IMG/VR virus record: IMGVR_UViG_3300037200_000088
Coordinates: 11,114 to 75,113 of that record
Length of the DNA stretch: 64,000 nt
Direction: 5' to 3' (one strand)
DNA from: a virus
The notes beneath the pieces are model-generated. The model had not been told where the DNA came from, made no database searches, and saw only the letters and a program-made list of their open reading frames with translations. How positions within the stretch are numbered: position 1 is the first letter of the stretch; the number at the start of each line of letters is the position of its first letter. Shown here one piece after another: positions 2,823 to 26,948 of this stretch. The position numbers were made by a program, and so were the translations under genes.

Positions 2823-2836
2823 CTTGTAAGCCTCGC

Positions 2837-8545: not shown

Positions 8546-9129
8546 GGCGCTGGCCACGCTGCGGCGTCAATCGCGGCTTCTGTCGTGATCGTCGCGGCGG
8601 TAATCGCGGCCATGACTGTTTCGAGCGCGGCGAAGGTCGACTGAACCCAATCTGCGATATTGTCGGCGGTCGTTAGGAAATCAGCAGCGGAGATCGTCAC
8701 GAAGGCGCCAGTCGAAGAGAATTGCCAAAGCACGCTGGTCGGCGCGCCGGATTGTTGTAGGCGCAGCGCGTTGCCGGTGATCAACGCCAGCGAAGTCGGG
8801 TCGGTGGCGAATAGGTAGGAGGTTCCCTCGATCGTTACGTTGTGGCCGCCGGTCGCTAACGTCCATTGCTTCGCGTTGGCGTAGGCTAGGAGTTGCGCGG
8901 TCGTTGGAGCCGGAAGCGTCGGGGCTGCGGGCGCGATCAGCGCGCCGCCGGAGAGCGTCCATCCAATCCCGGCGCCGGGCTGGATCATGAAAGACGACCC
9001 GGTCGGCGGCGACATCGTTGCACCGCCGGGCAGCGAAAGAACGCCGCCGGATAGCGTCGCCGCGGCGTCGACCAGCAGCGTGTTGACGACGACGCCGCCC
9101 ACGACTTCTTGAACAATTTGCGTAACCAT
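8542..9129 (-). CDS. Tail fibre assembly-like protein (DUF4376-like)
   Basis: LLAYANAKQWTLATGG...WVQSTFA...AAIDAAAWP; directly follows the fibre gene. Confidence 0.7.
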   Translation of the reverse strand: MVTQIVQEVVGGVVVNTLLVDAAATLSGGVLSLPGGATMSPPTGSSFMIQPGAGIGWTLSGGALIAPAAPTLPAPTTAQLLAYANAKQWTLATGGHNVTIEGTSYLFATDPTSLALITGNALRLQQSGAPTSVLWQFSSTGAFVTISAADFLTTADNIADWVQSTFAALETVMAAITAATITTEAAIDAAAWPAP

Positions 9130-9140
9130 CCGCGCGCCCC

Positions 9141-10652
9141 TCAGAATTTGATAATGACGAAGCCATTGGCGCCGGTCCCGCCGTTGGCCGTGCCGCTGGC
9201 GCAGGCGCCCCCGTTTGACCCGCCGCCTGGAAACAGACCGGCCGCACCGACAGGACCGATGACCCCCCAATTTGGCGCGCCACCCCCGAATGGTGAGCCG
9301 CCGCCCGCGCCGTTGACAGGGAGCGCGCCAGATCCCGTGCCGGTGGCTGAGCCGATACCGCCCTGCTCGCCGTTCAACTCGATTTGAGCACCGAAGCCGC
9401 TGCCACCGACGCCCGGAACGTTGATCGCGTTAGGCGACCCGCCGCCGCCGCCGGTCGCATAAACCGGCGTGGTTGACCCAAAGGTGGTCGTGCCGCCAGC
9501 GCTGCCGTAATTGGCGCCGATGCCCCCGGTGCCGCCGGCTCCCACCGTGACGGTGATCACCTGCCCGGGCGTGACCCCTACGTCGTACGCGTGCGCGTAA
9601 CCACCGCCGCCGCCGCCGCTCGATGATGCGTTGGTCCCGGAGGAGCCGCCACCAGCGCCGCCAGCGCCCCAGAGTTCAACCTCTTTCAGGTTGTAGAGTC
9701 CCGCCGGAACCGTCCATGTGGTTGAAGAAAGAAACGGTATTACCTGCGATATGGCTTGGCTGTCGGTGTAGACGCCTAGCAACTGAGCCGACGACCCGGT
9801 GTTGGAAAAGAGAGTGTTCGCGCTGGCCTGAATGTCGTTTTTCTGGCAAGGCGTCCCATCCGCCCGGGTAATGGTCAACTGGCCGAGCGATCCGATCTGG
9901 ATCGTGGGCGTCGTTGTCTGGTTATTGTGAGCGACGTCCACCAAGTAGAGTTGGCCCTGCTTGTAGGCCGTGATCGCCGGCGCAAGATTGGTGACCTCGA
10001 TCGCGTCGGCCGCGCCACTGTCCGCGCCGAAATACGGGCCGACGCCATTGACGCTGGCGCTGGTGCTGTAGGCGTCGATCAGTTGGACGCCCGAACCTGT
10101 ATCGGCGAACAGCGTATCCGCGCCGGCCTTGATGTCGTGCGGCTGGCAAGGCGTCCCGTCCGCCCTGGTGATCGTTTGCACGCCGATCGAATTGATCTCG
10201 AATGTCGGCGTCGTGGTCAGATTGTCGTGCGCGACGTTGATCAGGAAAAGCTGGCCGGCGACATAACCGGTAATCGAGGGCGAGAGATCGGTAACGTGGA
10301 TAGCGTCCGCCGATCCGCTGTCGATCCCGTAGTAGGGGCCGAGGAACCCGGTAGGCGGCGCGGGAAGATTGGCGGCGATGACGGCTTCGAGCGCCGCCAG
10401 AAACTCCGCCTCAAGCGTCGCAACATTGCCATCGTCGTTGACGTTGGCCGACTGATGATCGGCGGTAAATTGCGCAATCATGGTCGCGACGACGCTCGCT
10501 TGGCGCATCGCATTGTTGAAGGTCACCGGGTCGGCAATGCCGATTTGCGCACCGAGTTGGCGGATCGTCGCCGCAGCATAAGCCGCTGGTGTCGCAGGTA
10601 TATTCGCGCCAACCCCAGTCGCCCAGGTGACAAATTCGTTGGTGGGAGGCAT
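9141..10652 (-). CDS. Tail fibre protein with an internal domain duplication and a Gly-rich C-terminal domain
   Basis: NNAMRQASVVATMIAQF...DDGNVATL baseplate-attachment N-terminus; TWTVPAG..VELWGAGGAGG domain. Confidence 0.85.
   Translation of the reverse strand: MPPTNEFVTWATGVGANIPATPAAYAAATIRQLGAQIGIADPVTFNNAMRQASVVATMIAQFTADHQSANVNDDGNVATLEAEFLAALEAVIAANLPAPPTGFLGPYYGIDSGSADAIHVTDLSPSITGYVAGQLFLINVAHDNLTTTPTFEINSIGVQTITRADGTPCQPHDIKAGADTLFADTGSGVQLIDAYSTSASVNGVGPYFGADSGAADAIEVTNLAPAITAYKQGQLYLVDVAHNNQTTTPTIQIGSLGQLTITRADGTPCQKNDIQASANTLFSNTGSSAQLLGVYTDSQAISQVIPFLSSTTWTVPAGLYNLKEVELWGAGGAGGGSSGTNASSSGGGGGGYAHAYDVGVTPGQVITVTVGAGGTGGIGANYGSAGGTTTFGSTTPVYATGGGGGSPNAINVPGVGGSGFGAQIELNGEQGGIGSATGTGSGALPVNGAGGGSPFGGGAPNWGVIGPVGAAGLFPGGGSNGGACASGTANGGTGANGFVIIKF
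9768..10340 (-). repeat. Tandem ~300-bp domain duplication inside the tail fibre gene
   Basis: GPYYGIDSGSADAI...TITRADGTPCQ and GPYFGADSGAADAI...TITRADGTPCQ. Confidence 0.9.
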
Positions 10653-10664
10653 TCTGAAGTCCCT

Positions 10665-11474
10665 TTAGGAGACGATGTTCTGAGCGACGAAGTCGGGCGG
10701 TTCGCCCCAAGAGCCGACTTCCCAGCCGGAGACGAATTCGTTCATCAGGCCCCAACCAAACAAAGGCGTGTTGTCGACCGTGACGACCTTGATATCGAGA
10801 TAGACGCCAGCGGGACCGATCGGGATCAGCTTTTGGGCAAGGATTTCGAGATCAACGACGCTCGGTATCTGCCCTGAGACGCCTATTTCCCAGTGCATCC
10901 CGATCGTCTGCAGCGTTGGCTGCGTCTGACCCAAGAACTCGCCCGGCGCGCGCCAGTAGGCCTGCCCCCAGCCATTGGCGGGAACGCCCCACGAGAACGG
11001 CTGGATGACACCGACGGCGCCGGAGACATCCTCAACGAACACATGGGTTGCCGGATTGATGAAGTACGCGTTGAGCGCGGCTTGCGCCGAGTCGGTTTGA
11101 CCGTCGCCGTAGTTGGCGATGATCTTGGCGTAGAGCAGCCGGCGGTAGGTGTCGTCGTCGAGGCTGTCGATGTAGGCCGCGTTGATATTGGGGCCTTGCC
11201 AGTAGCCTTGCGACCAGCCGCGAAGCGGATCGCTCCAAGTGAACCAGGGCTGCGCTACCGGGATCGTGACCTTGCGCGATTGCCCGACCCATTGACCGAC
11301 TACATCGAGCTGTGCACCGACCGCGACGTTGAGATCGAACGCCTGCGAGAGATTTGCGAAAAAGCTCTGGACATCGGCGAACGAAGCGACAGAGGCGGCG
11401 ATCGTCGCATTGAAGTTAGGCTTGTTGGCATAGAGCGGCGGGATGAGCGCCAGATAGTCGTTGGTGGCGCGCAT
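10665..11474 (-). CDS. Baseplate wedge protein (DUF2612)
   Basis: AFDLNVAVGAQLDVVGQWVG...LDDDTYRRLLYAKIIAN. Confidence 0.85.
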   Translation of the reverse strand: MRATNDYLALIPPLYANKPNFNATIAASVASFADVQSFFANLSQAFDLNVAVGAQLDVVGQWVGQSRKVTIPVAQPWFTWSDPLRGWSQGYWQGPNINAAYIDSLDDDTYRRLLYAKIIANYGDGQTDSAQAALNAYFINPATHVFVEDVSGAVGVIQPFSWGVPANGWGQAYWRAPGEFLGQTQPTLQTIGMHWEIGVSGQIPSVVDLEILAQKLIPIGPAGVYLDIKVVTVDNTPLFGWGLMNEFVSGWEVGSWGEPPDFVAQNIVS

Positions 11475-11523
11475 CAGGTTTTGCCTCTATAGGCTCTCAA
11501 AGAAGTTCTGGAGGATCGAAGAG

Positions 11524-11745
11524 ATGACCGTTGACGAGCTGCGCACCGCACTTGAGGGCGTGCCGGGCGAGCTGGAAGTGCAAATGTATTGCGATCAAAC
11601 GCTTGCGGAGGTGGACGTCGCGCACGTCGCTCGTCTGGACAGAAACTCGCGCATGAAACTTGGCGAGCCGTTATCCCCGAGGGGGACACCCTTCTTTGCG
11701 GTCGGCGATAAATATCCTGATAAATCCAAGCCTACGGATTGCTGA
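11524..11745 (+). CDS. Small hypothetical protein, antisense inside the baseplate operon
   Basis: GGAGGA RBS upstream of ATG 11524; MTVDELRTALEGVPGELEV; fills the gap between baseplate J and DUF2612. Confidence 0.65.
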   Translation: MTVDELRTALEGVPGELEVQMYCDQTLAEVDVAHVARLDRNSRMKLGEPLSPRGTPFFAVGDKYPDKSKPTDC

Positions 11746-12931
11746 CGATGACCGAGACGTTCCCCGGCACGCACAGCGGCGCTTCGTTGAAGTTGATCAT
11801 TACGTCGGCTTGCGTGGGCGTAAGACCATCGCGCGCGACGGCGATCGATTGGATTTCGAACGTCTGCGATTGCAAGCCGCCGAACAGATAGGCCGCAGCG
11901 TAGGCGCGGGTCCATTGGATGCCGTTGCCGATCCCGATATTGTTGGTCCAATTGGCAAGCGAATTCTGGATCAGCGCCTCGACATCGGTCGTGAATCCGT
12001 TCAGCGATTTGATCGTCACGGCATAGGTGATCAGCGGTTCGAGCACCGGGAAATAGTTGACCGTCGAGGGAATGCCATAAGCGTCGGTGAGGATAACCGA
12101 CGCCGAGCCATAGGTGCCGCAGCCGCCCTTTTTCGCCTTGATGGTCGCCGCGATCGAAGCCGCAACGCCTCCGTCGACGACGACCGCGATGCAATGGCCG
12201 GGAACGCCGTTCGCGTCGGGCAGGTTGCCCTCGTTCTCGTAGCAGCGCACGCGCGCAACGCCGGGCAGCGCCTCGATCGCGCCCTGTACGCCTTGCAGGA
12301 TCGCGGTAGAGGAATTCATGGTCGAAACCGACTGGCGCTGGCGTAGCGTCGCGTCGTCCTCAACCGGCAACCCTGCAGTGGCGTCGGAGATGTTGATCGC
12401 CGACTGCCAGCCTGGTTGGCTGTTCGATATTTCGTTGATCGTACCTTGCGGCGCCAGGATCGCCCCCGGCGTCGTGCAAATCGCGGTGACGACGATCTGC
12501 CCCGAGTAGGGGATCGTGACATTCGCCGGCAGCGCCCATGTGAAGCCGCCCTCATCCTCGAGCAGGCCGTTGATGATCGGCGAGAACGCCTGACCGACGA
12601 TCAGGATTTGCGCGTTCGAGTAGGAGGGGATCAGGCGTGCAAGACCGTTGATCTTGACGACGCTGGAAAGCCCGACGCCTTGCGCTGTAGTTGGTGAGAA
12701 CGCGTTGTACGCTTGGACCGCCATTGCGTTGGTGTCGTCGATCGCGGAAGCAATCAACCCGACCCATTCTCCGTCTTGCGTCGAGGAATCTAGACTTACG
12801 TCGCTGCCGTAAATCGACTGAAACTGCGCCACGACCCATGCCAGAACGGTCGCCAGCGTCGGCCGGCTGATCCCCGTAGGCGTGATCGTGCAAACCGGCG
12901 TCGTGCCGGCCTGGATTGACGACGTCGCCAT
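11732..12931 (-). CDS. Baseplate J / gp47-like protein
   Basis: ITPTGISRP...QSIYGSD...STQDGEW; EDDATLRQRQ; YENEG..DANGVPGHCI. Confidence 0.9.
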   Translation of the reverse strand: MATSSIQAGTTPVCTITPTGISRPTLATVLAWVVAQFQSIYGSDVSLDSSTQDGEWVGLIASAIDDTNAMAVQAYNAFSPTTAQGVGLSSVVKINGLARLIPSYSNAQILIVGQAFSPIINGLLEDEGGFTWALPANVTIPYSGQIVVTAICTTPGAILAPQGTINEISNSQPGWQSAINISDATAGLPVEDDATLRQRQSVSTMNSSTAILQGVQGAIEALPGVARVRCYENEGNLPDANGVPGHCIAVVVDGGVAASIAATIKAKKGGCGTYGSASVILTDAYGIPSTVNYFPVLEPLITYAVTIKSLNGFTTDVEALIQNSLANWTNNIGIGNGIQWTRAYAAAYLFGGLQSQTFEIQSIAVARDGLTPTQADVMINFNEAPLCVPGNVSVIVSNP

Positions 12932-13325: not shown

Positions 13326-14828
13326 TCAAAGCCCCCCTGTCGCCCCGGCGCTGTCCGCGTCCGCGTCGGGGAAGGATTGGATCGCAACGATGTCATCCGC
13401 CGTCGGCTCGATTTCCGCCGCCATCGCGGCGATCAGCGCTGCGATTTGCGGTCCGGCCAGCGTGGCGGCGACGGCGAGTTCGTTCGGATCCAGGCTGACG
13501 CCCATCGAGCCGGCGAGCGCCGCGAGCTGTAGCGCGGGCAGCGCGGCCTGCAACGTCGCAATCGCTGAGTTGGCGTTGGTCATCAGCGCGTTGATCTGCG
13601 CCGTCATGGCGGTGAAAGCCGCCATAGCCACGGCTTGGCTAGTTTCCGTAGAGAGCACGCCGGCCGTCAACCCCGTGACCTGGGCTTCTATCGCCGCGAG
13701 CGTCGAGGCGCTTTGCAGCGGTGCGAGTACGGCTGAGAGCGAAACCGGCGTCGGCGGATCGATTCCGAAATATTGGGTTATGTTCTGCGCCTGCGCCACG
13801 ACGTCCGTGAGGCCGTACGCGCCTCCGGTTGGCGTCGTAGCCCCGGAAAGGGCCGATACGCCCGTCTCCAGCGCCCCTACGGCCGCCGAGAGGCCTCCCG
13901 AGCCGGTTAGCGCCGAGACGAGGCCAGCGCCGGCCCCGCCGAGCGTCGAGGTCAGTGAGGAGGCGGCCGAGGTAATCGCCGAGGTCAGGGAAGACGTCGC
14001 GGCTGCGGTCGGGCTCGAAAGCAGCGAGCTTATACCGACCGACATCACCGTCGACATAATCGAGGAGATCTGGCTCGATCCGGACATTGGCGGCGGTATC
14101 GGCTTGGTCGCGACCAGTTTTCGGTTGGCGAAGGTCATTCCCGGCGAAGGCAGCGGGCTTTGCTGAATCGTGTTGATCAAAACCTTGGCGGCGTTTTTGA
14201 TGATGTTGCCGCTGGGAAGATGGATGGTCCCCGCCGCACCGCTGCCGCCAGTCGCGCCGCCGCTGCTAACCCCGCCGCCGCCGCTGCCGACGATGACCAG
14301 GTGCTTGACCGTCGAGGAGTGCGTGATCCCATTCGAGGGGTGGACATCGCTGACGTGGTTGCCGTTGTCGGAGCGGTTTTGCTGCGAGGTGGTCGACGGC
14401 GGCGGATTGAGCTTGCGCGGGTCGGATCGGCCGCCTGGCAACCAGCGAGAGTCGGCGAGATGGTGCGTCCTGTTGTCGATCGGGTCCTGAATACCGCCTT
14501 TTTGGTGCCAGAGATCCTGGGCCCGGCTGAGAAACTGGACGATCCCCTCGTCGCCCTTTTTTACCGGGTGGGTGTGCGATACGCCGCCCCCGTTGGGAAA
14601 GTGCACGGGGCTGGTATCGAGCGGGGGGAACGCGATCATTTTGACCGTGCCGTCCAGCATGGTGATCGCGAGATTGACGGCGGAGCTCGCGGTCGCGATA
14701 TGCCCATTGCTATCCTGCGAGATGATCGCTGGCAGTGAGGTCCAGATACCCTTCAGCGCGCCGTTGACAGCCTCCTCAACCGCGTCCATTTCCTGCGCGG
14801 CGTTCATCTTGATGCGCAGGACGTCCAT
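13326..14828 (-). CDS. Baseplate central spike (Gp138 N-terminal domain) with a long C-terminal extension
   Basis: IWTSLPAII...PVHFPNGGG..HPVKKGDEGIVQF...RTHHLAD. Confidence 0.8.
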   Translation of the reverse strand: MDVLRIKMNAAQEMDAVEEAVNGALKGIWTSLPAIISQDSNGHIATASSAVNLAITMLDGTVKMIAFPPLDTSPVHFPNGGGVSHTHPVKKGDEGIVQFLSRAQDLWHQKGGIQDPIDNRTHHLADSRWLPGGRSDPRKLNPPPSTTSQQNRSDNGNHVSDVHPSNGITHSSTVKHLVIVGSGGGGVSSGGATGGSGAAGTIHLPSGNIIKNAAKVLINTIQQSPLPSPGMTFANRKLVATKPIPPPMSGSSQISSIMSTVMSVGISSLLSSPTAAATSSLTSAITSAASSLTSTLGGAGAGLVSALTGSGGLSAAVGALETGVSALSGATTPTGGAYGLTDVVAQAQNITQYFGIDPPTPVSLSAVLAPLQSASTLAAIEAQVTGLTAGVLSTETSQAVAMAAFTAMTAQINALMTNANSAIATLQAALPALQLAALAGSMGVSLDPNELAVAATLAGPQIAALIAAMAAEIEPTADDIVAIQSFPDADADSAGATGGL

Positions 14829-15802
14829 CAGGTTCCACCCAATTGGGCGGAAGAGAAGGTTTCGGCGGGCGTCGGCGCCTGGCCGAGCACGTTCATCGCG
14901 AGGTCCTGATACCAGGGCGTCCCGCGCGTGTCGGCGTCGACGTCGATCCGATAAATCCTGTAAATTCCGTCGCCGGCAACCGCCGCCATGTTGATCGCAT
15001 TGGGCAAATAGTTGGGGTCAATCGATCCGTCCGAGAGAAGCTGCGGAAGCATGCCTTGGACCAGCGACTCATCAATATGCACCAAGCTATGGAACTTTAG
15101 TTGTGGATTGATCAACGACCTTGCGTACAGGCCGCCGGTTTCGAGCGTCGGCATGCCGATCAGGCCAGTCAGCGTGTTCAATTCGGTCGCGCCGCCGGGG
15201 ATCGCATCGTTGGGCGTGACCAGGTGCACCAGCGCATTTTGGATCGAAGCCGTCGCGCCCTTGGATTTGGCGACGTCGTTCATCAATTTCCACGCCATGC
15301 CGAACAGCGCGATCGAGCGCGGGTAGACCGGCGTCGAGAGCTGAACCGACGGTCCAACAAAGCCGAGGCCAACGCCGAACTGTTTCAAGGCGGCGATCGA
15401 CGTGTTGACGATATCGTTCGGCGTCGAGCCGGGCGGAAGCGTCTTGTTGACTTGCGCGTAGGTCTGCGCCTGCCCGCCGTCCGAGGCTAGGATCGTCGTC
15501 ATCGTGTCGGTCGGGTTCTCGCGGCCGTAAATCGCCTTGCGCAGATCGCCTTGAAAGATCAGCCCCATGTTCCCGACGTAACCGGCGCTGATCGAAACGT
15601 TGCTGCCCTCCGCCTGCGGGGCACAAAGCGCCTTCGCAAGCCCGGGGTTCTGGTTGGTCAACAGGATCGTCGCCGTATTCGGCTGGTTGAGCGTCGATTG
15701 CTTGATCTTGAAACGGACGCGGATGCTGCCTTCGTTGGCGTCATAGGTTTTGCCGATATAGGCGAAGGTGACCGCGCATTGGCGGATGTAGTTGGCACTC
15801 AT
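14828..15802 (-). CDS. Baseplate hub protein
   Basis: PNTATILLTN, ISAGYVGNMGLIFQG, TGLIGMP..SLINPQL, DTRGTPWY. Confidence 0.85.
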   Translation of the reverse strand: MSANYIRQCAVTFAYIGKTYDANEGSIRVRFKIKQSTLNQPNTATILLTNQNPGLAKALCAPQAEGSNVSISAGYVGNMGLIFQGDLRKAIYGRENPTDTMTTILASDGGQAQTYAQVNKTLPPGSTPNDIVNTSIAALKQFGVGLGFVGPSVQLSTPVYPRSIALFGMAWKLMNDVAKSKGATASIQNALVHLVTPNDAIPGGATELNTLTGLIGMPTLETGGLYARSLINPQLKFHSLVHIDESLVQGMLPQLLSDGSIDPNYLPNAINMAAVAGDGIYRIYRIDVDADTRGTPWYQDLAMNVLGQAPTPAETFSSAQLGGT

Positions 15803-16110
15803 GCCGCTATGTACAAATGAGCGGAACTTCCTAGATTGAAGAAACGCGGCACGGCGTCGGGATCTGCATCGGTAGCGCAGTACATTTGGCAACCGAAGTT
15901 CAAATACTCATATTGAGCCAGCAAGTCTGCCCCGGTAACCAACGGAATGCCTTGCACCAGAGGATTGTCGTCGCTGTCGGCGATATCCAACTCCCAGCAA
16001 TCATTTGGCGTGAAGAGATAGATCAGCCTCAAGTTATAACTCTGCCCATTGGGGAAAACGACCGAAAGCGTTTGAGGCTGCGGCGTCAGCGGGACTTCGT
16101 AGACCGTCAT
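15799..16110 (-). CDS. Baseplate component (DUF6983-like)
   Basis: MTVYEVPLTPQPQTL...GIPLVTGADLLAQYEYLNFG. Confidence 0.8.
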   Translation of the reverse strand: MTVYEVPLTPQPQTLSVVFPNGQSYNLRLIYLFTPNDCWELDIADSDDNPLVQGIPLVTGADLLAQYEYLNFGCQMYCATDADPDAVPRFFNLGSSAHLYIAA

Positions 16111-16799
16111 GGCGAATAGGCCGTGGGCGCCCCAGCGCCGGCTGGGACGAGGCTTTGCGTGCCGGCCCCGGTGACGTCGTTCGGAAACGTCATCGCGCCG
16201 AAAGCGTCGGGGGTGACCGAGCCGGCCGGAATCGTCGCGACGCCATTGCCGACTTGCGGCGTCGGAACGCCGCTCGGGTTGTTGGTAATCGATCCGATTT
16301 GGCTTGACCCGTTGGTGTTGGCGGGCGTCGTCGCGCTCATCGTCGTGTTGGTGATGACGATATGCTGCGCGGTCGCGACGCACATCAGCGTATATTCGGA
16401 ATCCGGGTCGGTCTTGACCAGGAGCGTGCGCAGCAACATCGAGGAATATTGGCGTTTTCCAGTCGAGATGTTGAACGGCGTTTTCGAGGCTTGCAGCGCG
16501 AGAAATGCCGCATAAACCGCTTGGACGTAGCCGGAGGTTTGCGCGTTCGAGTCCGACCAGCCGCAACGGATTTCAACCGTGTAGGGCTGAAGGAAGGCGT
16601 GGTCGGTGACTGGCGTCCCGTATTCGACGGGATGCTGGGTGATCGCCAATTCGTCGTTGTGTGTCTCCTCGACGACGACGTGGGGATAGAGGTCGCCGAT
16701 CGAGCGGACGCCAGGTTGAATCAACGCGTAATTTGCCGAGGTGTCGCCGATCAGCGGGCCGAATGTCGACGCAGCCGAAACGATGTTGTTTGCCATCAC
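16107..16799 (-). CDS. Distal tail / tube-initiator (Dit-like) protein
   Basis: EETHNDELAITQHPVEYGTPVTDHAF; ISTGKRQYSSMLL. Confidence 0.85.
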   Translation of the reverse strand: MMANNIVSAASTFGPLIGDTSANYALIQPGVRSIGDLYPHVVVEETHNDELAITQHPVEYGTPVTDHAFLQPYTVEIRCGWSDSNAQTSGYVQAVYAAFLALQASKTPFNISTGKRQYSSMLLRTLLVKTDPDSEYTLMCVATAQHIVITNTTMSATTPANTNGSSQIGSITNNPSGVPTPQVGNGVATIPAGSVTPDAFGAMTFPNDVTGAGTQSLVPAGAGAPTAYSP

Positions 16800-18658
16800 G
16801 GACTCGCCGCTTGCAGGGCTTGGCTCAAATCATCGTTGACGCCCTTTTGCGCGCCGTGAACAAGCCGCGCGACGGCGACTGGGTCGCCGGTTCCGTCGAC
16901 GTGGATCGTAGTTTGCGTCGGCGCGTTGATATGCGTGTCGCCGCTGGCCCCGCCCAAGATCGGCGGGCTCGCCATTGCGCCCGAAATGAGCGGTCCACCA
17001 AACGCCGGGATTTGCATAGGCGGTGTGGGCGCCGCGTTCGGCCGACTCAGCGATCCTGCAAGAGCGCCGTAATCCGGGTGAACGTCCGTTCCCGGCGGGA
17101 GCGCCTGAAAGTTGGCCCCGGCGCGAGCGGCTTCGCTTCTCAGCGTCGAGTTTACCTCGGCGGACGCGCCCGGATAGTTGCCCAGGGCGCTTGAGAGCGA
17201 CCCGACGCCAAGGACTGTGATCCGTTTCGGATCGGCGCCCTTGTCGATTGCGGCCTGAATTTGCTGGCGGATCGTGGCCGCGGCGTGCGGCTCGTTGGAT
17301 GCACCGCTCGAGATGACGACGTCTTTGCCGGCGAGGCTTTGCCGATAGGCGGAGATTCGCTTGGCGACCCAGTCGGGCGTCTTCCCGACCACCGCGTTGT
17401 CGCTATCGGCGTGAAGCGCGCCGGCCAAGCCCGCGCCGATGCTATCGCCGAAGATGACCGTGCCGCCGCCGAGCGGCGCGCCGCTCCTGGCCGGCGGGGC
17501 GTTGGCGTCCGGCGAGGCGCCGGAAGGCACACGCACGGCTGGCGTAGCGGGCTCTCCCCCGCCAGCGCCGACCAGACCCTTAGCCCAATTCCAGGCTTTC
17601 GACGCACCGCCTTTCCAGTCCCAGGCCGGCGCATCTTTCTGGTCATTTAGGCCCTTGACTATATCGGCGGCGGGCGGGTTTACCGCACGGTCGGCCTGAT
17701 TGAGCATGCTGCCCGGCGTGTTGACCGAGCCATTCATCCAGACCAGCCAACCGACCAGGCTGTGAAACCGCATCGCGATATCGGCGATCGAGTCCGCAAG
17801 TCCTTTGACCAGCATGCGGAAGTCGCCCAATTCGTCTGGCTGGCCCAGCACGGCGCCAAAATCCTTGACCCATGCCGCTGTCATATCAGCGAGCGCTTTG
17901 GTTACCTCGCCGATCGCCTCGCCGATCTGAGCGCCGTTGGCGGTAATGAAGTCGTCGAAAGCCTGCATAGGCGCGGTGAAATCACGCTCTAGCGCCGAGC
18001 CGATCATGTCGGCGATGGCGCTGAGCTTGTTCGAGACGTCGCGCCAGATTGTCTGAAAGTTCTTACCGTCGATCGCCGCCTGCTCGATATTGAAACCAAG
18101 CGACTTGCGATAGGCCTCGAAACCGGCCAGATCGGGCAAGACCTCGTCCAAGTGCCGCTTCATCAGCAGGATCGGCTGCGCGGAAATGCCGACGACGGAG
18201 GCGAGGTTTTCGACCTGCTGGACGCTCAAGTTTCGCAGGTTCTCCAGCATCTCCTGCTGAATTTCGAGCTTTCCGGTAGTCGCGTCGAGGCCGAAGCCAA
18301 GCTTATTGAGTACCGAAATGTTGTTGCGATTTTCGCGAAGCTTTTGCGCAGCCGCCTCGAGTAGGCTGCTCGCCTCAGCCGCATTGCCCCCGTATTTCTT
18401 GATCAGCAGCGGAAAATCGTGGGCTAGCCCCGCCGAGCTATTGGCGCGCTGCGCGGCGAAGTAGAGATCGTCGAATTTAGTCGCCGCCTCCTTGACCGCC
18501 TCGCCGACCTTTTTGGCGATTTCAACCAACAGATCGCCGAGCAGTTGAGCCTTGAGCGTCGCGCTCGTAATCGCGGCCTCAAACTGATGCTGGTCGCGCT
18601 TGCCCCTCTCGGTATCCCAGCCGAGCGCAATCAGGAATTCGCGCAATGTTTCGGCCAT
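16796..18658 (-). CDS. Tape-measure paralogue 2 with an SGNH/GDSL hydrolase domain
   Basis: N-terminus ETLREFLIALGW..FDDLYFAAQR; SGNH blocks FGDSIG, VVG, SSGASN, DVHP. Confidence 0.85.
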   Translation of the reverse strand: MAETLREFLIALGWDTERGKRDQHQFEAAITSATLKAQLLGDLLVEIAKKVGEAVKEAATKFDDLYFAAQRANSSAGLAHDFPLLIKKYGGNAAEASSLLEAAAQKLRENRNNISVLNKLGFGLDATTGKLEIQQEMLENLRNLSVQQVENLASVVGISAQPILLMKRHLDEVLPDLAGFEAYRKSLGFNIEQAAIDGKNFQTIWRDVSNKLSAIADMIGSALERDFTAPMQAFDDFITANGAQIGEAIGEVTKALADMTAAWVKDFGAVLGQPDELGDFRMLVKGLADSIADIAMRFHSLVGWLVWMNGSVNTPGSMLNQADRAVNPPAADIVKGLNDQKDAPAWDWKGGASKAWNWAKGLVGAGGGEPATPAVRVPSGASPDANAPPARSGAPLGGGTVIFGDSIGAGLAGALHADSDNAVVGKTPDWVAKRISAYRQSLAGKDVVISSGASNEPHAAATIRQQIQAAIDKGADPKRITVLGVGSLSSALGNYPGASAEVNSTLRSEAARAGANFQALPPGTDVHPDYGALAGSLSRPNAAPTPPMQIPAFGGPLISGAMASPPILGGASGDTHINAPTQTTIHVDGTGDPVAVARLVHGAQKGVNDDLSQALQAASP

Positions 18659-20667
18659 CAGAACGTCGCGCCCTGAAGGTTTCGCGTCAGGTCCGCAGGC
18701 TGTTGCGTAATGCCAGCCGCGACCATGTGCGGGCTAGGGTTCGCCTCGCTACTGAGCCCGTCGATCATGATCTTCGTGTCCATCGGCGCGTGGATCGTCG
18801 TGCCAGCCGTTCCGGCCGCGCCGCCTAGCGTAGGTGTCTGGCCGCCCATCAGGCTACCCGTTAGGGCACCTTGCGGCTCCCAATTACCCATCCCTTTCCA
18901 AGGATTTGGCAGATTGCTCACCGCGGGAGCGCGTGCGGGTTCACCTGCGGGCGCGTGCTGTGCTGGCTCATCGAGCGCGCCGAGCCGCCGCCCGATCGGC
19001 CCGAAATACGCAGTGCCGCTTGTACCCCAGGCGTCGGTACCGGCGGCGCCGGTATTGAGATATCGATTTGCACCGCCTACGCCCTGATTGTGCGCATAAC
19101 CCAACATTTGTAGTTGTTGCGGTTTCGACATCGCCGCGAATTTTGGATTTCGCATCAATTGGTTGTAGTGATCGAGCGTGTAGTTTTCGAAAAACCGCTC
19201 TTGCATCGCTGGATCGGCGAGAAACTCAGCGGTGCTAGGCCTCGGGACGCCGAGGCGCGCGGCGGTTTCGGTAATTTCCGCTGGGCCCATCTGGTAGCGG
19301 CCAGCGAACCGTCCGCCAGCGCCGCCCATGCGGTCGTAACGCTTACCCTCAATATCGGTCAGCCCCTCTTTGAAGGCCCCGTATTGTTCGGCACTAAAGC
19401 CGGTTCCGGTCGTCATCGAGGTCGCGTCATACGGGACGCCAGTGGGGCCCGTCGCCGCCGCGGCGGGGGCTCCCCGCAGCGGGGACGCACTCGCACCACC
19501 CCCAGGCGCGGCTTCGGCACCGCCTCCAGCCGCCGGAGGGCCGCCACCAGCCCATCCAGGGGCGTGCCTGCGATAGAAATTCTTTGCCGCGCCCCACACA
19601 CCGGTCGGCGCCGAGCCATCAGCGTTCGCCTGACCGCCCGCGCCTAGCGCGCCTTCGATCGCCGCACCGCCGCGGTTGTAACTGTCCAGGTCAGATTTGT
19701 TGCCGGATAGGCGATTGAGGATATCGGCGAACTTGTCGCCGTAGCTCAACAGCAATTGGATATCTTTGATGAAGCCGTGGAAGTTGTCGGCCAATTCCTT
19801 GATCGACACCGCGAAATCGCGCATGCCATCGCGAAACGAATCGAACGACTGCGGATCGTTCATGATCTTCTGGAAGTCGCCGACCCAAGCCGTCGTCATC
19901 GCCAGCAGCGCCTTGCTGATGATGTCAATGTCGGCGCCGATTCCCTTGCTGTTCGCCGTAAGGAACTGGTCGAACGCGTTGAGCGGACCGATCAGCGCCT
20001 TTGTCAACCCGCTCCCGATATCATCGCTGATCGCGGTGATCTTGTTGTGCGTATCGCGCCAGATCGTCGCCAGCTTATTCGCGTCGATTTCGGCTTGCGG
20101 CAGATCGAAGCCAAGCGTCTTGCGATAAGCGGCGAGTTTGTCCATCTGCTCGAGGATGTCGTCAGCGTTCCGGCGCAGCGCCATCGCGACGTTGTCGGAC
20201 ATGCCGACCTGGTGTGCGCCCTGGATCAGCAGCGCCGTGCTCATGTGAGACAGGTTTTTCAGATACTTCTGCTGCAACTCCATTTGGCCGGTGATCGGGT
20301 TCAACCCGAAGCCCATCCGGTTGATGTCTTGCACCGCGATCGAGCCGGCGCGCAGCTTGGCCGCCATGCTCTCGATCGAGCCGGCCGCCTCGCCCGCGCT
20401 GACGCCAGCCTGCGCCATCACTTTGACGAAATCGCTTACCGTCGCCGCAGCTGTATTCGTCCGCTGCGCCTGGAAGTAGAGGCGGTCGAAGTTGGTCGCG
20501 ACGTTCGAAACGCTATCGAGAACCTTGCGGGCGAGCTCCTCAAGGCCGTCGCCGAGCAGCCTCGCCTTGAGGGTGGCGCTTTCGATCGCCGCCTCGAACT
20601 GTTTCTGGCCGGTTTGATTGGACGCCCAGCCCAGCGAGATCAGAAACTCCTTGACGGTATCGGTCAT
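18658..20667 (-). CDS. Tape-measure paralogue 1 with a lysozyme-like domain
   Basis: N-terminus DTVKEFLISLGW..FDRLYFQAQR; IEG..Y..GG..FAGRYQMG...PAMQE...GYAHNQGVGG. Confidence 0.85.
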   Translation of the reverse strand: MTDTVKEFLISLGWASNQTGQKQFEAAIESATLKARLLGDGLEELARKVLDSVSNVATNFDRLYFQAQRTNTAAATVSDFVKVMAQAGVSAGEAAGSIESMAAKLRAGSIAVQDINRMGFGLNPITGQMELQQKYLKNLSHMSTALLIQGAHQVGMSDNVAMALRRNADDILEQMDKLAAYRKTLGFDLPQAEIDANKLATIWRDTHNKITAISDDIGSGLTKALIGPLNAFDQFLTANSKGIGADIDIISKALLAMTTAWVGDFQKIMNDPQSFDSFRDGMRDFAVSIKELADNFHGFIKDIQLLLSYGDKFADILNRLSGNKSDLDSYNRGGAAIEGALGAGGQANADGSAPTGVWGAAKNFYRRHAPGWAGGGPPAAGGGAEAAPGGGASASPLRGAPAAAATGPTGVPYDATSMTTGTGFSAEQYGAFKEGLTDIEGKRYDRMGGAGGRFAGRYQMGPAEITETAARLGVPRPSTAEFLADPAMQERFFENYTLDHYNQLMRNPKFAAMSKPQQLQMLGYAHNQGVGGANRYLNTGAAGTDAWGTSGTAYFGPIGRRLGALDEPAQHAPAGEPARAPAVSNLPNPWKGMGNWEPQGALTGSLMGGQTPTLGGAAGTAGTTIHAPMDTKIMIDGLSSEANPSPHMVAAGITQQPADLTRNLQGATF

Positions 20668-20834
20668 TTCCTTTCCGCCGCCTTGCGCGCCCGCGCGTCA
20701 TTCTCCGCCTTGACGGCGAGCGCGTCATTCATGATCGCGATGTCGAGCAGGTCGAGCGTGCCGTCTTTCAGGCTTTCGTATTTGCACCAGTTCGCCGCGA
20801 CCGGCGCCAACAGCCAGTCTAGGTTATCCGGCAT
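20664..20834 (-). CDS. Tail assembly chaperone, second ORF (DUF6889-like; -1 frameshift extension)
   Basis: MPDNLDWLLAPV..WCKYESLKDGTLDLLDIAIMNDAL; absent from the ORF track, translated by hand. Confidence 0.85.
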   Translation of the reverse strand: MPDNLDWLLAPVAANWCKYESLKDGTLDLLDIAIMNDALAVKAENDARARKAAERK

Positions 20835-20836
20835 CC

Positions 20837-21319
20837 TTACTGGATCGAATGTGAGGCGGCCGGATTCGCGCCTGTCAAACTTGACAGGCCGGCGGGCAAA
20901 AAACCACCGAAGGTCTCCTGGAAGACGCCTAGCGCAATGCGCAGCATGACGGTGAAATCGTTGTTGATGTCATCGAACATCGAGCGCCCGGCGTCTGCCG
21001 ACCAGACCTTTGCCCAACCGATTTCGCCGTCTCGCTTGCGTTCAACCGTCGCCAGGCAAGTGCCGATAATGAACCTGCGGTCCCCGGCCGACATTTTAGC
21101 CAGCTCGCGCGCGACCGGCGTTGCGATATGCCCCAACTGCTCCAGGGAGGTCTCGGCAAGATTGCCAACCCCCTGCTGGCGCATTTGCACCAAGAGCGGC
21201 GCGAGTTCTCCGAACCCGGAGGCGAGCAACGGCGAGATTTTAGCGATGATCTCGATTTGGTCGAACGCGTTGATCCGCGACGTCTGGCGATAGACACAGT
21301 CGCCTACCCTGAATTCCAT
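20837..21319 (-). CDS. Tail assembly chaperone
   Basis: INAFDQIEIIAKISPLL...MFDDI; between tube and tape measure. Confidence 0.85.
   Translation of the reverse strand: MEFRVGDCVYRQTSRINAFDQIEIIAKISPLLASGFGELAPLLVQMRQQGVGNLAETSLEQLGHIATPVARELAKMSAGDRRFIIGTCLATVERKRDGEIGWAKVWSADAGRSMFDDINNDFTVMLRIALGVFQETFGGFLPAGLSSLTGANPAASHSIQ
20870..20903 (-). promoter_or_regulatory. Programmed -1 frameshift signal: T TTT TTG plus a downstream hairpin
   Basis: Slippery heptamer at 20903-20897; GCCTGTCA-agtt-TGACAGGC hairpin 3' of it; -1 frame is open into 20664..20834. Confidence 0.8.
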
Positions 21320-21346
21320 TCGCGTCACCCTTTCCAAAGTAAATCG

Positions 21347-21646: not shown

Positions 21647-22429
21647 TTAGATCGACGCCATCAGGAGGCCCGCTGCTAAGCCCTTTGGTCTGGCACTCCT
21701 GTTCTGAGCAATTTTGCTCATAAGGGCGCAAGATTCAGGAGATCGCTTTTTGCCACGGTTTTTCGCAGCAGCCTTGGCGCGTGCCTCAGGGGTGTGAATA
21801 AGCGCGACGCACTTGGCTATTGTTTGAGCGGAGGGCGGCGGACGGTTGCGCGCTGCGACACTTCGTCTATCGCGCGTCTCATCGCTTTGATTGAGAACGG
21901 CTTGTCTGATCAGCTCGCAGGTTTCTTTGGAATGCGCGTACCCGCTCTTAGCGCGCCTTCCGGCTACAGCCGCCGCGATATGCTCAGGCGTTCGGTTGAG
22001 AGCGGCGACCCGTTTTCTTTCCCGCGTTTCGGGCGAGTCGATACGTCCCTTTAGGGCCGCGCTTCGCTTTGTCTTTGTGAGGGGCGCCGTCCGTCTCGAT
22101 ATTTCCCCAATGAGCCGCTTTCCAGCCTCGGTGTGTTTATGCCCAGACGCGCCCTCGCCACCGTCCGTCAGATTGAGCAGCGGGCCACCATGCCGATTGC
22201 GACCGATTGAAGCAATCAATGCCACTTCTAGTTCGTAGGCGGCAGCCTCGGTTAAGTTTTCGCTGACCTTCGCGATGGGAAGCTCGCCATATTTCCTAAT
22301 GAGGTTGCGAAGATGCTTGTTGTGATCGCGGCGAGGCGTATAGCATCGCCGTCCGACGCCCTTTCCAACGTAGCATGGCGCGCCATTTGGGCGGAAAATC
22401 ACATACACGTAGAACCGAGAATCGCTCAT
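21647..22429 (-). CDS. Free-standing GIY-YIG-like homing endonuclease with NUMOD3-like repeats
   Basis: FYVYVIFRPNGAPCYVGKG..R; E..LI..IGR; LLNLTDGGEG; HTE../DSPETR/HSKETC repeats. Confidence 0.85.
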   Translation of the reverse strand: MSDSRFYVYVIFRPNGAPCYVGKGVGRRCYTPRRDHNKHLRNLIRKYGELPIAKVSENLTEAAAYELEVALIASIGRNRHGGPLLNLTDGGEGASGHKHTEAGKRLIGEISRRTAPLTKTKRSAALKGRIDSPETRERKRVAALNRTPEHIAAAVAGRRAKSGYAHSKETCELIRQAVLNQSDETRDRRSVAARNRPPPSAQTIAKCVALIHTPEARAKAAAKNRGKKRSPESCALMSKIAQNRSARPKGLAAGLLMASI

Positions 22430-22457: not shown

Positions 22458-22949
22458 CTATTGGGCGATCGGGAGTCCTGCTGAAAGTCCGGTGTTCATT
22501 AATCCGTTCCCCAATACTTCCGACGTCGCGATGAAGTCGAAGGCCCAGACATTGAGGCCGCCCTCGGTAGAGTAGCCGATGTCTGATTGTTTGATGAAAG
22601 CCCCGGCGGTCGCAACAATCGCGTCGCCACTGACCGGATTTGCGATCGTCAGGATATTCTGCCCCCAGTATGCCGCCGATTTTGATTGATAGGCGTAAAG
22701 CTGGTTCATCAGCGCATTGCCCGTCGCCGTCTTCAAGAGCGAGATCGTGATGCGGCTCGCCGTCGTCGCCTTCAGCGAGTGCATGCCGTCGCCATTCGCG
22801 CCGATCGTCATCGTGTTTTTGTCAGAGGACATCGCAATGCGAATGCTCTCATCCGAGACGCCAGACGAGGCTATATCGAAGTTTCCGCCAGGGCCTGAGA
22901 TAGATGCCTGAACGTCAAAGAACGAATAGACGCCACTTTGGACGGCCAT
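22458..22949 (-). CDS. Tail tube protein (DUF3277-like)
   Basis: YSFFDVQASISGPGG...KNTMTIGANGDGMHSL; follows sheath. Confidence 0.9.
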   Translation of the reverse strand: MAVQSGVYSFFDVQASISGPGGNFDIASSGVSDESIRIAMSSDKNTMTIGANGDGMHSLKATTASRITISLLKTATGNALMNQLYAYQSKSAAYWGQNILTIANPVSGDAIVATAGAFIKQSDIGYSTEGGLNVWAFDFIATSEVLGNGLMNTGLSAGLPIAQ

Positions 22950-23003: not shown

Positions 23004-24521
23004 TCACGGGTTGATGTTCAAAAGTACGTCAGCTATTTGCACGGCACCTGCCAACTTCGCGGCCACCTGAAATGGAACGCTGATACGTTCTTCTCGCAAG
23101 TTCTCGGCCTGCGTAGCAACAGGAGGATAATATATGTAGTACCCCTTTGTAAGTATCTGCCCGTTCTGCAATTGGCCGAAGCCATCTGCGTTCCATTGTC
23201 CCGGCGCCATCAGCCCATTGTTGATACCGGCCTCGCAGCCTGCCGCAATCGCGGTCGCGATCTGGTTAGACCCGGCATCGGTCTGCGGAATCTTCGTGCC
23301 GGTCGTGTAGAGCAAGTTGAACACGTCGGTTTGGATTTGGTTCTGCAGCCAATCGACGCCCTGGACCTCATCGAACCAGTAGCCGTTGGTCATCTGGCCG
23401 TTCCAAATCATCACCGCGCCGTTGGACACTGTGATGTTGACGTTGCCGCCCTTGCCGATCAGCGTCGCGAACTGCGTCTCGTTGAGTTGTTCGGCCTGGA
23501 GGCCCGGCGCCTGCTTGTAGGCCAGGGTCAGCGTCGTATCGTTGCCCTCGAAATCGACGGTGAAGCCGCGCCCGAACATCGTCGCGACCGCGTAGGGGTT
23601 GAACGCCGAATACATCCAGAACATTTTGCGGTTGTTGAGCGATTGTAGCACGCTCCCCAGGTCGGCCGTTTGCGTCGGGTCCATCACATTTGTGTTTTGG
23701 ATCGTCGTGCCGAACATGCGCTGGCGCTGGCCGGCGAGGATATAGGCGCTGATCGCGATGTAGTCGGCCTGGACGAGCTTGACGGTCGTGGCGTCCATCA
23801 ACCCGTACCACTGCGAGGAGGTCGCCACGCAGGCCTGTACGCCGCTCAGCGCGCTCTCGGCGTTCTGCCCCGGGATCAGTGGCGAGGCGCCGGAGGCGGA
23901 CGTAAGGCCGAGCAAGGTCGAAATGTCGGTGGTGCCGCCGATCGCCGATGACGTTGAGCCGAACGAAACCGAGGAAGCCGGGCCGGTCGTGTTGCTGGTG
24001 ATGACGAATTGGGTTTCGGCGGAATTCCAGACGCAGGTAACGCCGGAGGTGAAAGCAGCGACCAGCGCGGTTTGAATGATCGACGCCACGCCGTTCATGT
24101 TCAACGCGGCCGAGAAGTTCAGCGGTTGGATATTGGCCGCGACGCCGTTGACCGAAATGCGAAATGATCCATCCGTGATCGCGGTGAAGTTCGAGAGCAG
24201 CGCCTGAAGCGGGTTGAGCGTCGCGGCGCCCAGCATGCCGGCGGTTGCCGTGCTGGCCCAGCGGCCGATATAGACGATCGCGGGCTGCGGCGACTGTTCA
24301 AAAAACAACTCCGCCGCCAGATATTCTGGAGTGTTCGAGGCGAAGTCAACCGCGACCTCCTCAAAGCCGGAATACTGGCGGATGCGTTCATTGGTGTTGA
24401 TGACGTTGGAGTCTCCCAAGATCAACAATGTACCAAAGTTCTCGAACGGGACTGCCGTCGGCGTGAACGAGACGGCTACGTTGACGAAGTCCGAGACGTC
24501 GACCGCAATCACGTTTGCCAT
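23004..24521 (-). CDS. Tail sheath protein (DUF3383)
   Basis: PEYLAAELFFEQSPQP..YIGRW; DWLQNQIQTDVFNLLY..KIPQTDAG; KLAGAVQ. Confidence 0.92.
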   Translation of the reverse strand: MANVIAVDVSDFVNVAVSFTPTAVPFENFGTLLILGDSNVINTNERIRQYSGFEEVAVDFASNTPEYLAAELFFEQSPQPAIVYIGRWASTATAGMLGAATLNPLQALLSNFTAITDGSFRISVNGVAANIQPLNFSAALNMNGVASIIQTALVAAFTSGVTCVWNSAETQFVITSNTTGPASSVSFGSTSSAIGGTTDISTLLGLTSASGASPLIPGQNAESALSGVQACVATSSQWYGLMDATTVKLVQADYIAISAYILAGQRQRMFGTTIQNTNVMDPTQTADLGSVLQSLNNRKMFWMYSAFNPYAVATMFGRGFTVDFEGNDTTLTLAYKQAPGLQAEQLNETQFATLIGKGGNVNITVSNGAVMIWNGQMTNGYWFDEVQGVDWLQNQIQTDVFNLLYTTGTKIPQTDAGSNQIATAIAAGCEAGINNGLMAPGQWNADGFGQLQNGQILTKGYYIYYPPVATQAENLREERISVPFQVAAKLAGAVQIADVLLNINP

Positions 24522-26162: not shown

Positions 26163-26948
26163 TCAGTATCCCCGAATTTTCCTCAGCGCCGCGGCGATCA
26201 TTTCGTGTTCTTCGGCGGTGCCTGAATTCTTGATCGAGTTGGCCCTCCTGCCGACAATCCAGACATTGCCGGGCTCATAGCCGCGAGACGAGTCGATGCG
26301 ATCGATCGACGGGGAATAGATACCGTCGCGAACTTCTGGTGCCGGCCAAGGATGGCCGAGCAAAGGACAGTAATCACCCATCGGAGGAATGTCGCCTAGA
26401 ACAATAGTAAATGTTCGGCCCATCCGTTTAGACCGGTGCTTAGCCTCTGCATACAGGAGCTTCACTATATTATTGGCTCGGTACCTGCGCGCTCTTGCCC
26501 GAAGAACTAGGACAGGTGTGTTTTTACGGCATTTTTTGTTTGATTCTTTCGCCCGTTCGGGGTGTCGCTCGCGATACTTCTTGGCATGAGCAATGCGACG
26601 AGCGGCGAACGCGACCGGATCGCCCGCCCTTAATTCGGCCTCATATTGCCGCTGCCGCGCAACCCTGCGCTCACGAAGCTCGCCGTCAGTCTTTGTCTTC
26701 GGTCGCCCGGTTCGCTTTATTTTCTGGTATTCGCGCAGGTCTTCGGCCGTCTTTATCTCAGGTGGGACAGGATTAAGCTCGCGATAGCGCCGCCTTCGTA
26801 TGGCTGCCTTCTCGGCTTCCCTCTTGTTATGCCCCACCGGATCGATCGCTTTTCGCTCAAGATAATACTCGTGCGCGCGCCTTAGTTTACGTTCTCGCGC
26901 CTCTTCAACGCTGTATTTTCTGGGCCGTCCGGTTTTTGACATATACAA
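26163..26948 (-). CDS. Free-standing HNH-like homing endonuclease
   Basis: CPLLG...SPSIDRIDSSRGYEPGNVWIVGRRANSIKN; basic N-terminus with two KxTGRPxK repeats. Confidence 0.8.
   Translation of the reverse strand: MYMSKTGRPRKYSVEEARERKLRRAHEYYLERKAIDPVGHNKREAEKAAIRRRRYRELNPVPPEIKTAEDLREYQKIKRTGRPKTKTDGELRERRVARQRQYEAELRAGDPVAFAARRIAHAKKYRERHPERAKESNKKCRKNTPVLVLRARARRYRANNIVKLLYAEAKHRSKRMGRTFTIVLGDIPPMGDYCPLLGHPWPAPEVRDGIYSPSIDRIDSSRGYEPGNVWIVGRRANSIKNSGTAEEHEMIAAALRKIRGY

Follow-up and report, generated by a model that had tools for sequence, protein, structure and literature searches.

Tape-measure proteins are generally treated as single-copy rulers, and enzymatic inserts in them are known from few cases. 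The tape measures of phages phiCbK (gp95, with a CHAP domain) and TM4 carry a wall-degrading domain and are believed to be ejected so that the wall is opened (PMC3556154), and T5 pb2 was cited as a tape measure with a wall hydrolase (PMC3853054). Tal (gp59) of Staphylococcus phage 80alpha/phi11 is a hub with a C-terminal SGNH/GDSL domain and a presumed wall activity (PMC7048315). Esterases of the Ape1 type take O-acetyl groups off acetylated Gram-negative walls, freeing O6 of N-acetylmuramic acid (MurNAc) for lytic transglycosylases (PMC6365954). Here we analyzed two adjacent genes for tape-measure proteins (TMP-A and TMP-B) in IMG/VR virus record IMGVR_UViG_3300037200_000088. The window, that is, the whole stretch of DNA analyzed, comprises 64,000 nucleotides (nt), bases 11114-75113 of the record. 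The two genes are paralogues, one with a lytic-transglycosylase-like cassette and the other with an SGNH cassette. We concluded, with a probability of about 0.6, that they stem from an old tandem duplication kept by selection, and that both products would be loaded into the tail lumen and expelled together, the esterase of one aiding the transglycosylase of the other. Tape measures that bear enzymes have been described before, as have tail-tip lysins with an SGNH domain, and in relatives of this phage both enzymes sit in one tape measure. Searches of the open-access literature yielded no account of full-length tape-measure paralogues in tandem whose cassettes complement each other, nor of a tape measure that contains an SGNH domain.

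The pair consists of the following parts (window coordinates; amino acids, aa; open reading frame, ORF; hidden Markov model, HMM).

18658-20667, minus strand: TMP-A (P0001, 669 aa), with the GH23 cassette; ORF, phrog_2276 (4.8e-14) and phrog_12506 (5e-13)
16796-18658, minus strand: TMP-B (P0002, 620 aa), with the minimal SGNH cassette; ORF, phrog_2276 (9.4e-13) and phrog_12506 (8.9e-11)
18656-18660, minus strand: TGATG stop/start overlap of TMP-A and TMP-B, read directly
19663-20667, minus strand: TMP-A N-terminal tape-measure domain (N-domain), aa 1-335; N-domain HMM, E-value 4.6e-130
17660-18658, minus strand: TMP-B N-domain, aa 1-333; N-domain HMM, E-value 2.2e-128
19456-19662, minus strand: TMP-A linker rich in Gly, Pro, Ala and Ser, aa 336-404, with the Trp-rich motif W..R..AP.W.GG; composition
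18973-19455, minus strand: TMP-A enzyme cassette (cassette A), aa 405-565, GH23 lytic-transglycosylase / goose-lysozyme fold; AlphaFold2, Foldseek and VIA
17015-17506, minus strand: TMP-B enzyme cassette (cassette B), aa 385-548, SGNH fold with S406, G425, N455 and H527; AlphaFold2, Foldseek and VIA-wide
18661-18837, minus strand: TMP-A C-terminal module, aa 611-669; hhalign against the B-set
16802-16969, minus strand: TMP-B C-terminal module, aa 564-619; hhalign against the A-set

The sequence-only reading had described two adjacent intact ORFs of 669 and 620 aa joined by TGATG, and the sequence reads as described: the junction is ACG TTC TGA TGG CC, where the stop codon of TMP-A and the ATG of TMP-B have one base in common. 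The paralogy proposed for the N-terminal ~320 aa was borne out by BLASTP (43% identity over aa 1-302, E-value 2e-79) and by hhalign of the A-orthologue and B-orthologue N-domain profiles (331 columns, E-value 1e-72). The resemblance noted at the C-termini is weak in pairwise BLASTP (E-value 0.002) and is supported by the profiles (A-set against B-set, hhalign probability 94%, E-value 1.2e-7, 56 columns); at the profile level a module of ~56 aa common to A and B is real. The linkers of both proteins have a G+P+A+S fraction of 0.53 to 0.61 (0.61 over TMP-A aa 311-410). They also contain a Trp/Arg-rich motif, W..R..AP.W.GG at TMP-A aa ~355-376 (19480-19560) and APAWDWKG..KAWNW at TMP-B aa ~345-365 (17560-17620), which the alignments show to be conserved after the N-domain in A-type, B-type and single tape measures.

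Both proteins were matched by the curated tape-measure families phrog_2276, phrog_12506 and phrog_8125 (E-values 1e-5 to 5e-14), and both genes lie where a tape-measure gene is placed, in the interval from the chaperone to the Dit-like/hub genes. TMP-A and TMP-B stayed below threshold with the Pfam tape-measure models; relatives with the same N-domain family passed PhageMin_Tail PF10145 (L004 with 34.2 bits and L052 with 36.9 bits, cut-off 33.2). Among solved structures, neither whole protein had a sequence match, and the N-domain profile matched a designed coiled coil alone. No transmembrane segments were found in A or B (maximum Kyte-Doolittle 19-mer ~1.1 to 1.2). Complex prediction with the two N-domains (aa 1-335 each) gave a score of 0.02, which neither supports nor opposes co-assembly.

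A Foldseek check had been proposed for the two cassettes, and it returned a lytic-transglycosylase fold for A and an SGNH fold for B. In the case of cassette A, which had been put at ~18980-19400 as a lysozyme-fold cassette, the position and the superfamily fold hold, but the cassette is more precisely lytic-transglycosylase-like. Its AlphaFold2 model (28-sequence alignment) had a predicted local distance difference test score (pLDDT) of 93.2, and the top Foldseek matches were all lytic transglycosylases (Slt, phiKZ gp144, MltE and phi6 lysin). When these structures were re-aligned with VIA, MltE gave Z 13.5 (root-mean-square deviation, rmsd, 2.7 A; 141 residues), MltC 13.1 and Slt70 12.1. E440, G456-R-Y-Q459 and H526 (motif AHNQG) are invariant in 28 homologues, E440 lying at the end of model helix 22-36, and on the model E440, GRYQ and AHNQG would be the GH23 motifs. 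By PHROG search, TMP-A aa 410-555 matched phrog_5867 'endolysin' (1.9e-23); by Pfam search, no SLT (PF01464) match was obtained at E<=1 for the TMP-A protein or the cassette, or anywhere in the genome. Cassette A as modelled thus has the GH23 fold yet stands outside the Pfam SLT family. Sequence does not separate a lytic transglycosylase from a hydrolase here, and the label used is transglycosylase-like. About 25 metagenomic and prophage proteins, including ones from Methylobacterium and Lichenibacterium, share cassette A alone with 58 to 73% identity.

For cassette B, the sequence-only reading had claimed an SGNH cassette at ~17060-17460 with all four blocks, which correspond to G404-D405-S406, G425, G452/N455 and D525-x-H527. 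The fold and the residues S406, G425, N455 and H527 were upheld, but the acid of the DxH block is variable in relatives. G404, S406, S450, G452, N455 and H527 are invariant in 41 homologues, and D405 and G425 are found in at least 90% of them. The AlphaFold2 model (pLDDT 89.9) was compared with VIA-wide, which is independent of Foldseek, and the best match was the C-domain of Staphylococcus aureus OatA (Z 14.1, rmsd 2.4 A, 132/155 residues). The top 50 structural matches were all SGNH enzymes (Z 14.1 to 10.2; Foldseek probability 1.00), including pneumococcal OatA-C (12.7), PatB (10.6) and Campylobacter jejuni Ape1 (10.3). The comparison with an Ape1-like esterase holds for the SGNH fold and for a best match that handles O-acetyl groups, OatA-C, but Ape1 itself is only mid-list at Z 10.3, with its SGNH part alone aligned (143/365 residues). 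Cassette B had no Pfam hit at E<=1, and the SGNH profile searched against solved structures matched only pneumococcal OatA-C, with a non-significant E-value of 0.17.

A HMMER search of 1.84 billion representatives found 85 relatives of cassette B at E<=1e-3, and 41 of these were aligned for all motif and domain counts. A muramidase or transglycosylase domain was present in the same polypeptide in 16/41 (SLT 8, Phage_lysozyme2 6, Hydrolase_2 1 and Phage_lysozyme 1), and Lipase_GDSL_2 PF13472 was weakly matched by 2/41 (2.4e-4). By PHROG, 13 homologues matched the tape-measure family phrog_2276 and 10 the unannotated phrog_19273, while others matched 'lytic tail protein' or 'internal virion protein with endolysin domain'. 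The cassette thus represents a domain family (P0051-P0131; 85 representatives at 50% identity) that Pfam does not model and that phrog_19273 covers in part. Judged by these homologues, it is a recurrent unnamed module of phage proteins that would be expelled into the envelope, usually beside a glycan-cutting domain. One homologue has a TrbL/VirB6 domain, which hints that the family may be used in conjugative wall breaching as well. Of 50,697 deposited phage records, a single one contains the cassette, that of a Helicobacter pametensis prophage (BK070131.1, 35% identity). The protein, annotated 'hypothetical protein' (L054:3441-6119, 892 aa), lies where a tape measure would, with a DUF3383 sheath upstream, and its SGNH cassette adjoins a T4-type lysozyme domain. 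PMC6365954 cites a paper on wall modification in H. pylori, and O-acetylation in this genus is of interest.

Both members of the pair have relatives of their own. TMP-B has seven full-length relatives (P0004-P0010, 41-51% identity) in which all motifs are kept, and the TMP-A orthologues P0013-P0016 have the same N-domain and C-terminus with varying cassettes. On L020 (IMGVR_UViG_3300014499_000092), an A-type gene (1839-4217; N-domain 64% identical, same GH23 cassette) is followed after 10 nt by a B-type gene, 60% identical and truncated where the contig ends. Four further pairs of one A-type and one B-type protein (P0010 with P0015, P0006 with P0016, P0044 with P0045 and P0043 with P0017) were put together from contigs of equal size (27117, 9417, 14443 and 12923 bp). 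In the maximum-likelihood tree of the N-domains, the A-clade (5 sequences) and the B-clade (8 sequences) are sisters with support of 99 and 100, joined at 99, and the single tape measures of L003, L022 and L023 form the next branch outside. Because the A and B clades are sisters, the duplication predates the divergence of all sampled members. P0017, paired as the A-type protein of the 12923-bp contig, shares the GH23 cassette of TMP-A (77% cassette identity) and has an N-domain outside the A+B clade, which suggests that its chassis was replaced by recombination, the contig pairing itself being taken from size.

One copy might be non-functional or decaying, or the tandem might be an assembly artefact; as a test, the sequence-only reading had named a ratio of nonsynonymous to synonymous substitutions (dN/dS) near 1 for one copy. 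When the window was compared with L020 (Nei-Gojobori), dN/dS was ~0.22 for TMP-A (dN 0.30, dS 1.40) and ~0.22 for the TMP-B N-domain (dN 0.34, dS 1.55), values that are if anything overestimated because dS is near saturation. The N-domain values are equal for A and B (about 0.22 to 0.25), and cassette A gave ~0.08. Both copies are under purifying selection and neither is decaying, as the sequence-only reading had argued. Nothing in favor of decay or artefact was found: both frames are open, each copy has orthologues in several lineages with dN/dS ~0.2 and invariant catalytic residues, the arrangement recurs in L020, an independent contig, and 43% identity is far below that of collapsed strain variants. 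We therefore give this explanation next to no credence.

When the N-domain HMM was run over ~45 distinct viral, metagenomic and prophage contigs (every locus fetched), two copies were found only in the window, L020 and L025. The survey for tandem tape measures thus yielded three cases, but the usual state among these contigs is one gene. The P0002 sequence alone had no match among viral contigs, and the metagenome scan found distant single-tape-measure loci only. In L025 (IMGVR_UViG_3300036790_000004; 7983-12166) the genes for sheath, tube and chaperone are followed by tape measures of 766 aa and 628 aa with a 4-nt overlap. Their two N-domains group together in the tree (support 95, one of the branches being long), which suggests that this duplication was independent. 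The first L025 protein has Phage_lysozyme2 and SGNH cassettes, and the second has the motifs SxHxxGLAFD ... HxH, which resemble a LAS/M15 zinc peptidase. The A-type proteins P0014, P0015 and P0016 also have this peptidase-like domain, placed after a glycosidase-like one; it is a motif-level lead, as neither Pfam nor PHROGs nor a profile search against solved structures supported it. In the sister lineage L003 (IMGVR_UViG_3300038412_000035), one 742-aa tape measure has Phage_lysozyme2 and then SGNH in series, and most other relatives have a single Phage_lysozyme2 cassette. Across the A/B clade the pairing is stable, with glycosidase(s) in A and SGNH in B. From these sequences, a fixed chassis (N-domain and C-terminal module) appears to carry one to two exchangeable wall-enzyme cassettes and to have been duplicated at least twice.

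These comparisons bear on two other explanations of the tandem. One copy may be the true ruler and the other an ejected cargo that keeps the tape-measure ends as a loading or docking signal. This would suit the unequal sizes of A and B (669 vs 620 aa) and the rule of a single gene in the ~45 related contigs. It would also suit the range of tape-measure lengths within the clade (620 to 792 aa, the N-domain being the same), by which length would be loosely fixed and the enzymes would be swappable cargo. However, the whole ~330-aa N-domain is kept in both without length change, together with the C-terminal module, N-domain constraint is equal (dN/dS ~0.22 to 0.25) and neither copy is marked as degenerate, and we consider a single ruler with a cargo copy unlikely. 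The other explanation is that A and B build alternative virions, with A-only or B-only tails as bet-hedging across host wall chemistries. The assembly modules are common to both proteins, and cassette content varies among close relatives as it does for host-adaptive parts. The TGATG overlap, however, implies coupled translation in every infected cell, no switch element was seen, and the stable pairing of glycosidase(s) in A with SGNH in B fits cooperation better. Alternative virions were thus judged improbable.

In the mechanism we favor, TMP-A and TMP-B would both be loaded into the tail lumen through their common end modules, by analogy with muralytic tape measures (PMC3556154, PMC3853054). 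After sheath contraction both would be expelled to the periplasm, where they would act from the periplasmic side and open the wall locally for DNA entry. There, the TMP-B esterase would remove the O-acetyl (or another acyl) group from MurNAc C6, so that the hydroxyl is freed for the lytic transglycosylase. Lytic transglycosylases require a free MurNAc C6 hydroxyl. This transglycosylase chemistry, the role of Ape1, the OatA-type structural match and the repeated fusion to glycosidases are the reasons for proposing that the esterase primes the transglycosylase, to which we give a little under even odds. That homologues of the SGNH cassette recur in one polypeptide with a muramidase or transglycosylase domain fits a wall-directed role. 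The duplication may be one of several routes by which this phage group places two or three enzymes for the wall on its tape measure(s). A stronger version holds that a single tail contains both paralogues, mixed in an oligomer or lying next to each other, and injects them together, that TMP-B is the first phage-borne peptidoglycan de-O-acetylase and primes TMP-A, and that duplication is a general payload route in contractile phages; taken as a whole, we find it doubtful.

Several points weigh against loading of both proteins followed by priming. TMP-A is 49 residues longer than TMP-B, a difference that sits uneasily with whole lengths acting as rulers in one tail; if both are in one tail, the ruler would be the equal-length N-domains or one copy only. 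The presence of either protein in the virion is argued by analogy, and adjacency of A and B on the four Logan/ENA contigs was taken from equal sizes alone and is circumstantial. SGNH substrates are diverse, including lipids, lysophospholipids and acetyl groups of polysaccharides. O-acetylation of the host wall is assumed for a host that was placed tentatively, through distant prophage relatives in Alphaproteobacteria. As to cassette B itself, lipases and sialate and xylan esterases match it at similar Z, no Pfam model matches either window cassette so that the SGNH assignment is one of fold and motifs, and the triad acid stands in DxH (D525-x-H527), not the canonical DxxH, and varies among relatives. 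Finally, cassette B is a single domain of ~150 aa without the inserted carbohydrate-binding domain of Ape1.

A lipid or other acyl-ester substrate is the main rival to priming by the esterase: the SGNH cassette may act on another acylated envelope component (phospholipid of the inner or outer membrane, lysophospholipid or lipoprotein), or it may transfer acetyl. GDSL lipases, TesA-like lysophospholipases, PlaA and sialate and xylan esterases lie within ~1 to 3 Z units of the best matches, which are themselves transferases (OatA-C and PatB) and not esterases. In addition, 2 homologues weakly match Lipase_GDSL_2 and one has the TrbL/VirB6 membrane domain. On the other hand, a muramidase or transglycosylase domain accompanies the cassette in 16/41 homologues, and L003, the first tape measure of L025 and the Helicobacter prophage protein all place it beside a lysozyme domain. 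The sole sub-threshold match among solved structures is pneumococcal OatA-C (E-value 0.17), and for the acetyl-transfer variant a donor would be unlikely in the periplasm at injection. We regard such another substrate as unlikely, and prefer an esterase acting on the wall together with the transglycosylase-like cassette.

The source record is a 75,113-bp virus genome with direct terminal repeats, rated complete, and no near-identical DNA or close relative of the phage was found among 50,697 phage records. PHROG and Pfam searches located the pair within a long minus-strand structural operon in the order sheath, tube, chaperone, A, B, Dit-like, hub and spike, then wedge proteins and fibres. Its other genes, with two genes outside the window given in genome coordinates, are as follows.

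28603-29628, minus strand: major head protein; PHROG/Pfam
between the major head protein and sheath genes, minus strand: neck and tail-completion genes; PHROG/Pfam
26163-26948, minus strand: HNH / endonuclease VII-like gene among the head-tail connector genes; phrog_3322, 3e-22
23004-24521, minus strand: sheath; phrog_205, E-value 9e-106
22458-22949, minus strand: tube-like protein; PHROG/Pfam
21647-22429, minus strand: homing-endonuclease-like gene inserted between the tube and chaperone genes; phrog_314, 4.6e-21
20837-21337, minus strand: tail assembly chaperone, upstream of the pair; phrog_1688, 6.2e-19
20664-20834, minus strand: 56-aa ORF between the chaperone and TMP-A; read from sequence
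16107-16799, minus strand: Dit-like tail protein, directly downstream of TMP-B; Pfam Dit_like PF21821 (1.5e-28) and phrog_817
14828-15892, minus strand: baseplate hub; phrog_196, 3.6e-52
13326-14828, minus strand: spike; PHROG/Pfam
genome 10234-11103, minus strand: candidate endolysin (289 aa) just left of the window; phrog_181, 4.4e-43, with chitinase-like sub-hits
genome 5439-6167, minus strand: second copy of the phrog_314 family in the early region outside the window; 7.9e-19

Because of the sheath (phrog_205) and the gene order of the tail operon, the phage is classed from its genes as a contractile-tailed myovirus; 'long-tailed phage', the term used by the sequence-only reading, is right as to the tail but too loose. 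The 56-aa ORF starts 2 nt past the chaperone stop and its end overlaps the TMP-A start by way of ATGA; it may be a second form of the tail assembly chaperone (frameshift-type or separate). The TMP-B stop overlaps the start of the Dit-like gene by 4 nt. With these TGATG, ATGA and 4-nt overlaps, the block from the chaperone to the Dit-like gene looks translationally coupled. L003, L020 and L025 have no gene of homing-endonuclease size at the tube/chaperone gap. The HNH / endonuclease VII-like gene is likely another mobile insertion in the structural operon.

Six endolysin Pfam families (PF00959, PF05838, PF01510, PF01464, PF00182 and PF13539) had no match genome-wide. As a separate endolysin is encoded elsewhere (the phrog_181 candidate), the enzymes of TMP-A and TMP-B would not be the lysis enzyme. 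As for the host, distant prophage relatives of the N-domain were found in Neorhizobium, Methylobacterium and an uncultured alphaproteobacterium. Together with the cassette A copies in Methylobacterium and Lichenibacterium and a G+C content of 58 to 65%, they point to the Alphaproteobacteria as the host group.

The pair indicates that a tape-measure chassis can be duplicated and kept under selection with interchangeable wall-enzyme cassettes, an arrangement that recalls the carriage of cargo by the spikes and tubes of secretion systems. A small SGNH family is now defined, found mostly in tape-measure and lytic tail proteins where it adjoins muramidases. If cassette B does remove O-acetyl groups, it would be a direct phage answer to the modification that protects walls from lysozymes and lytic transglycosylases, with a bearing on phage host range and on the design of enzybiotics. 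With two genes, two enzymes and one junction, the pair is a simple system that can be tested.

When the locus is set beside known systems, cassette A has the fold of MltE/MltC/Slt70, phiKZ gp144 and the phi6 lysin (Z 13.5 to 10.4 over ~135 to 141 residues). Its motifs read E...GxxQ...AHNQG as in the Family 1 lytic transglycosylases, from which it differs in the absence of a Pfam SLT match and in having Gly, not Ser, after the catalytic Glu. Cassette B has the SGNH fold of Ape1/OatA/PatB with Ser, Gly, Asn and His; it differs in that sequence similarity to them is non-significant (best E-value 0.17) and in that it is a predicted enzyme on a phage tail protein. With 80alpha Tal the likeness is that of a tail-tip protein of the virion with an SGNH-family domain, the placement of cassette B being known from genes alone, whereas Tal is a gp27-like hub of a Gram-positive siphovirus, not a tape measure, and has no paralogue pair. 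L003 is alike in its N-domain family (~40% identity), C-terminal module, SGNH cassette and tail operon order, but has one gene, and its glycosidase is a PF18013 tail lysozyme and not GH23. As in T5 pb2, TM4 and phiCbK, a tail-lumen ruler carries a peptidoglycan-degrading domain; those phages have one tape-measure gene and one muralytic activity, whereas here two paralogues each carry an enzyme of their own, one of them an SGNH domain.

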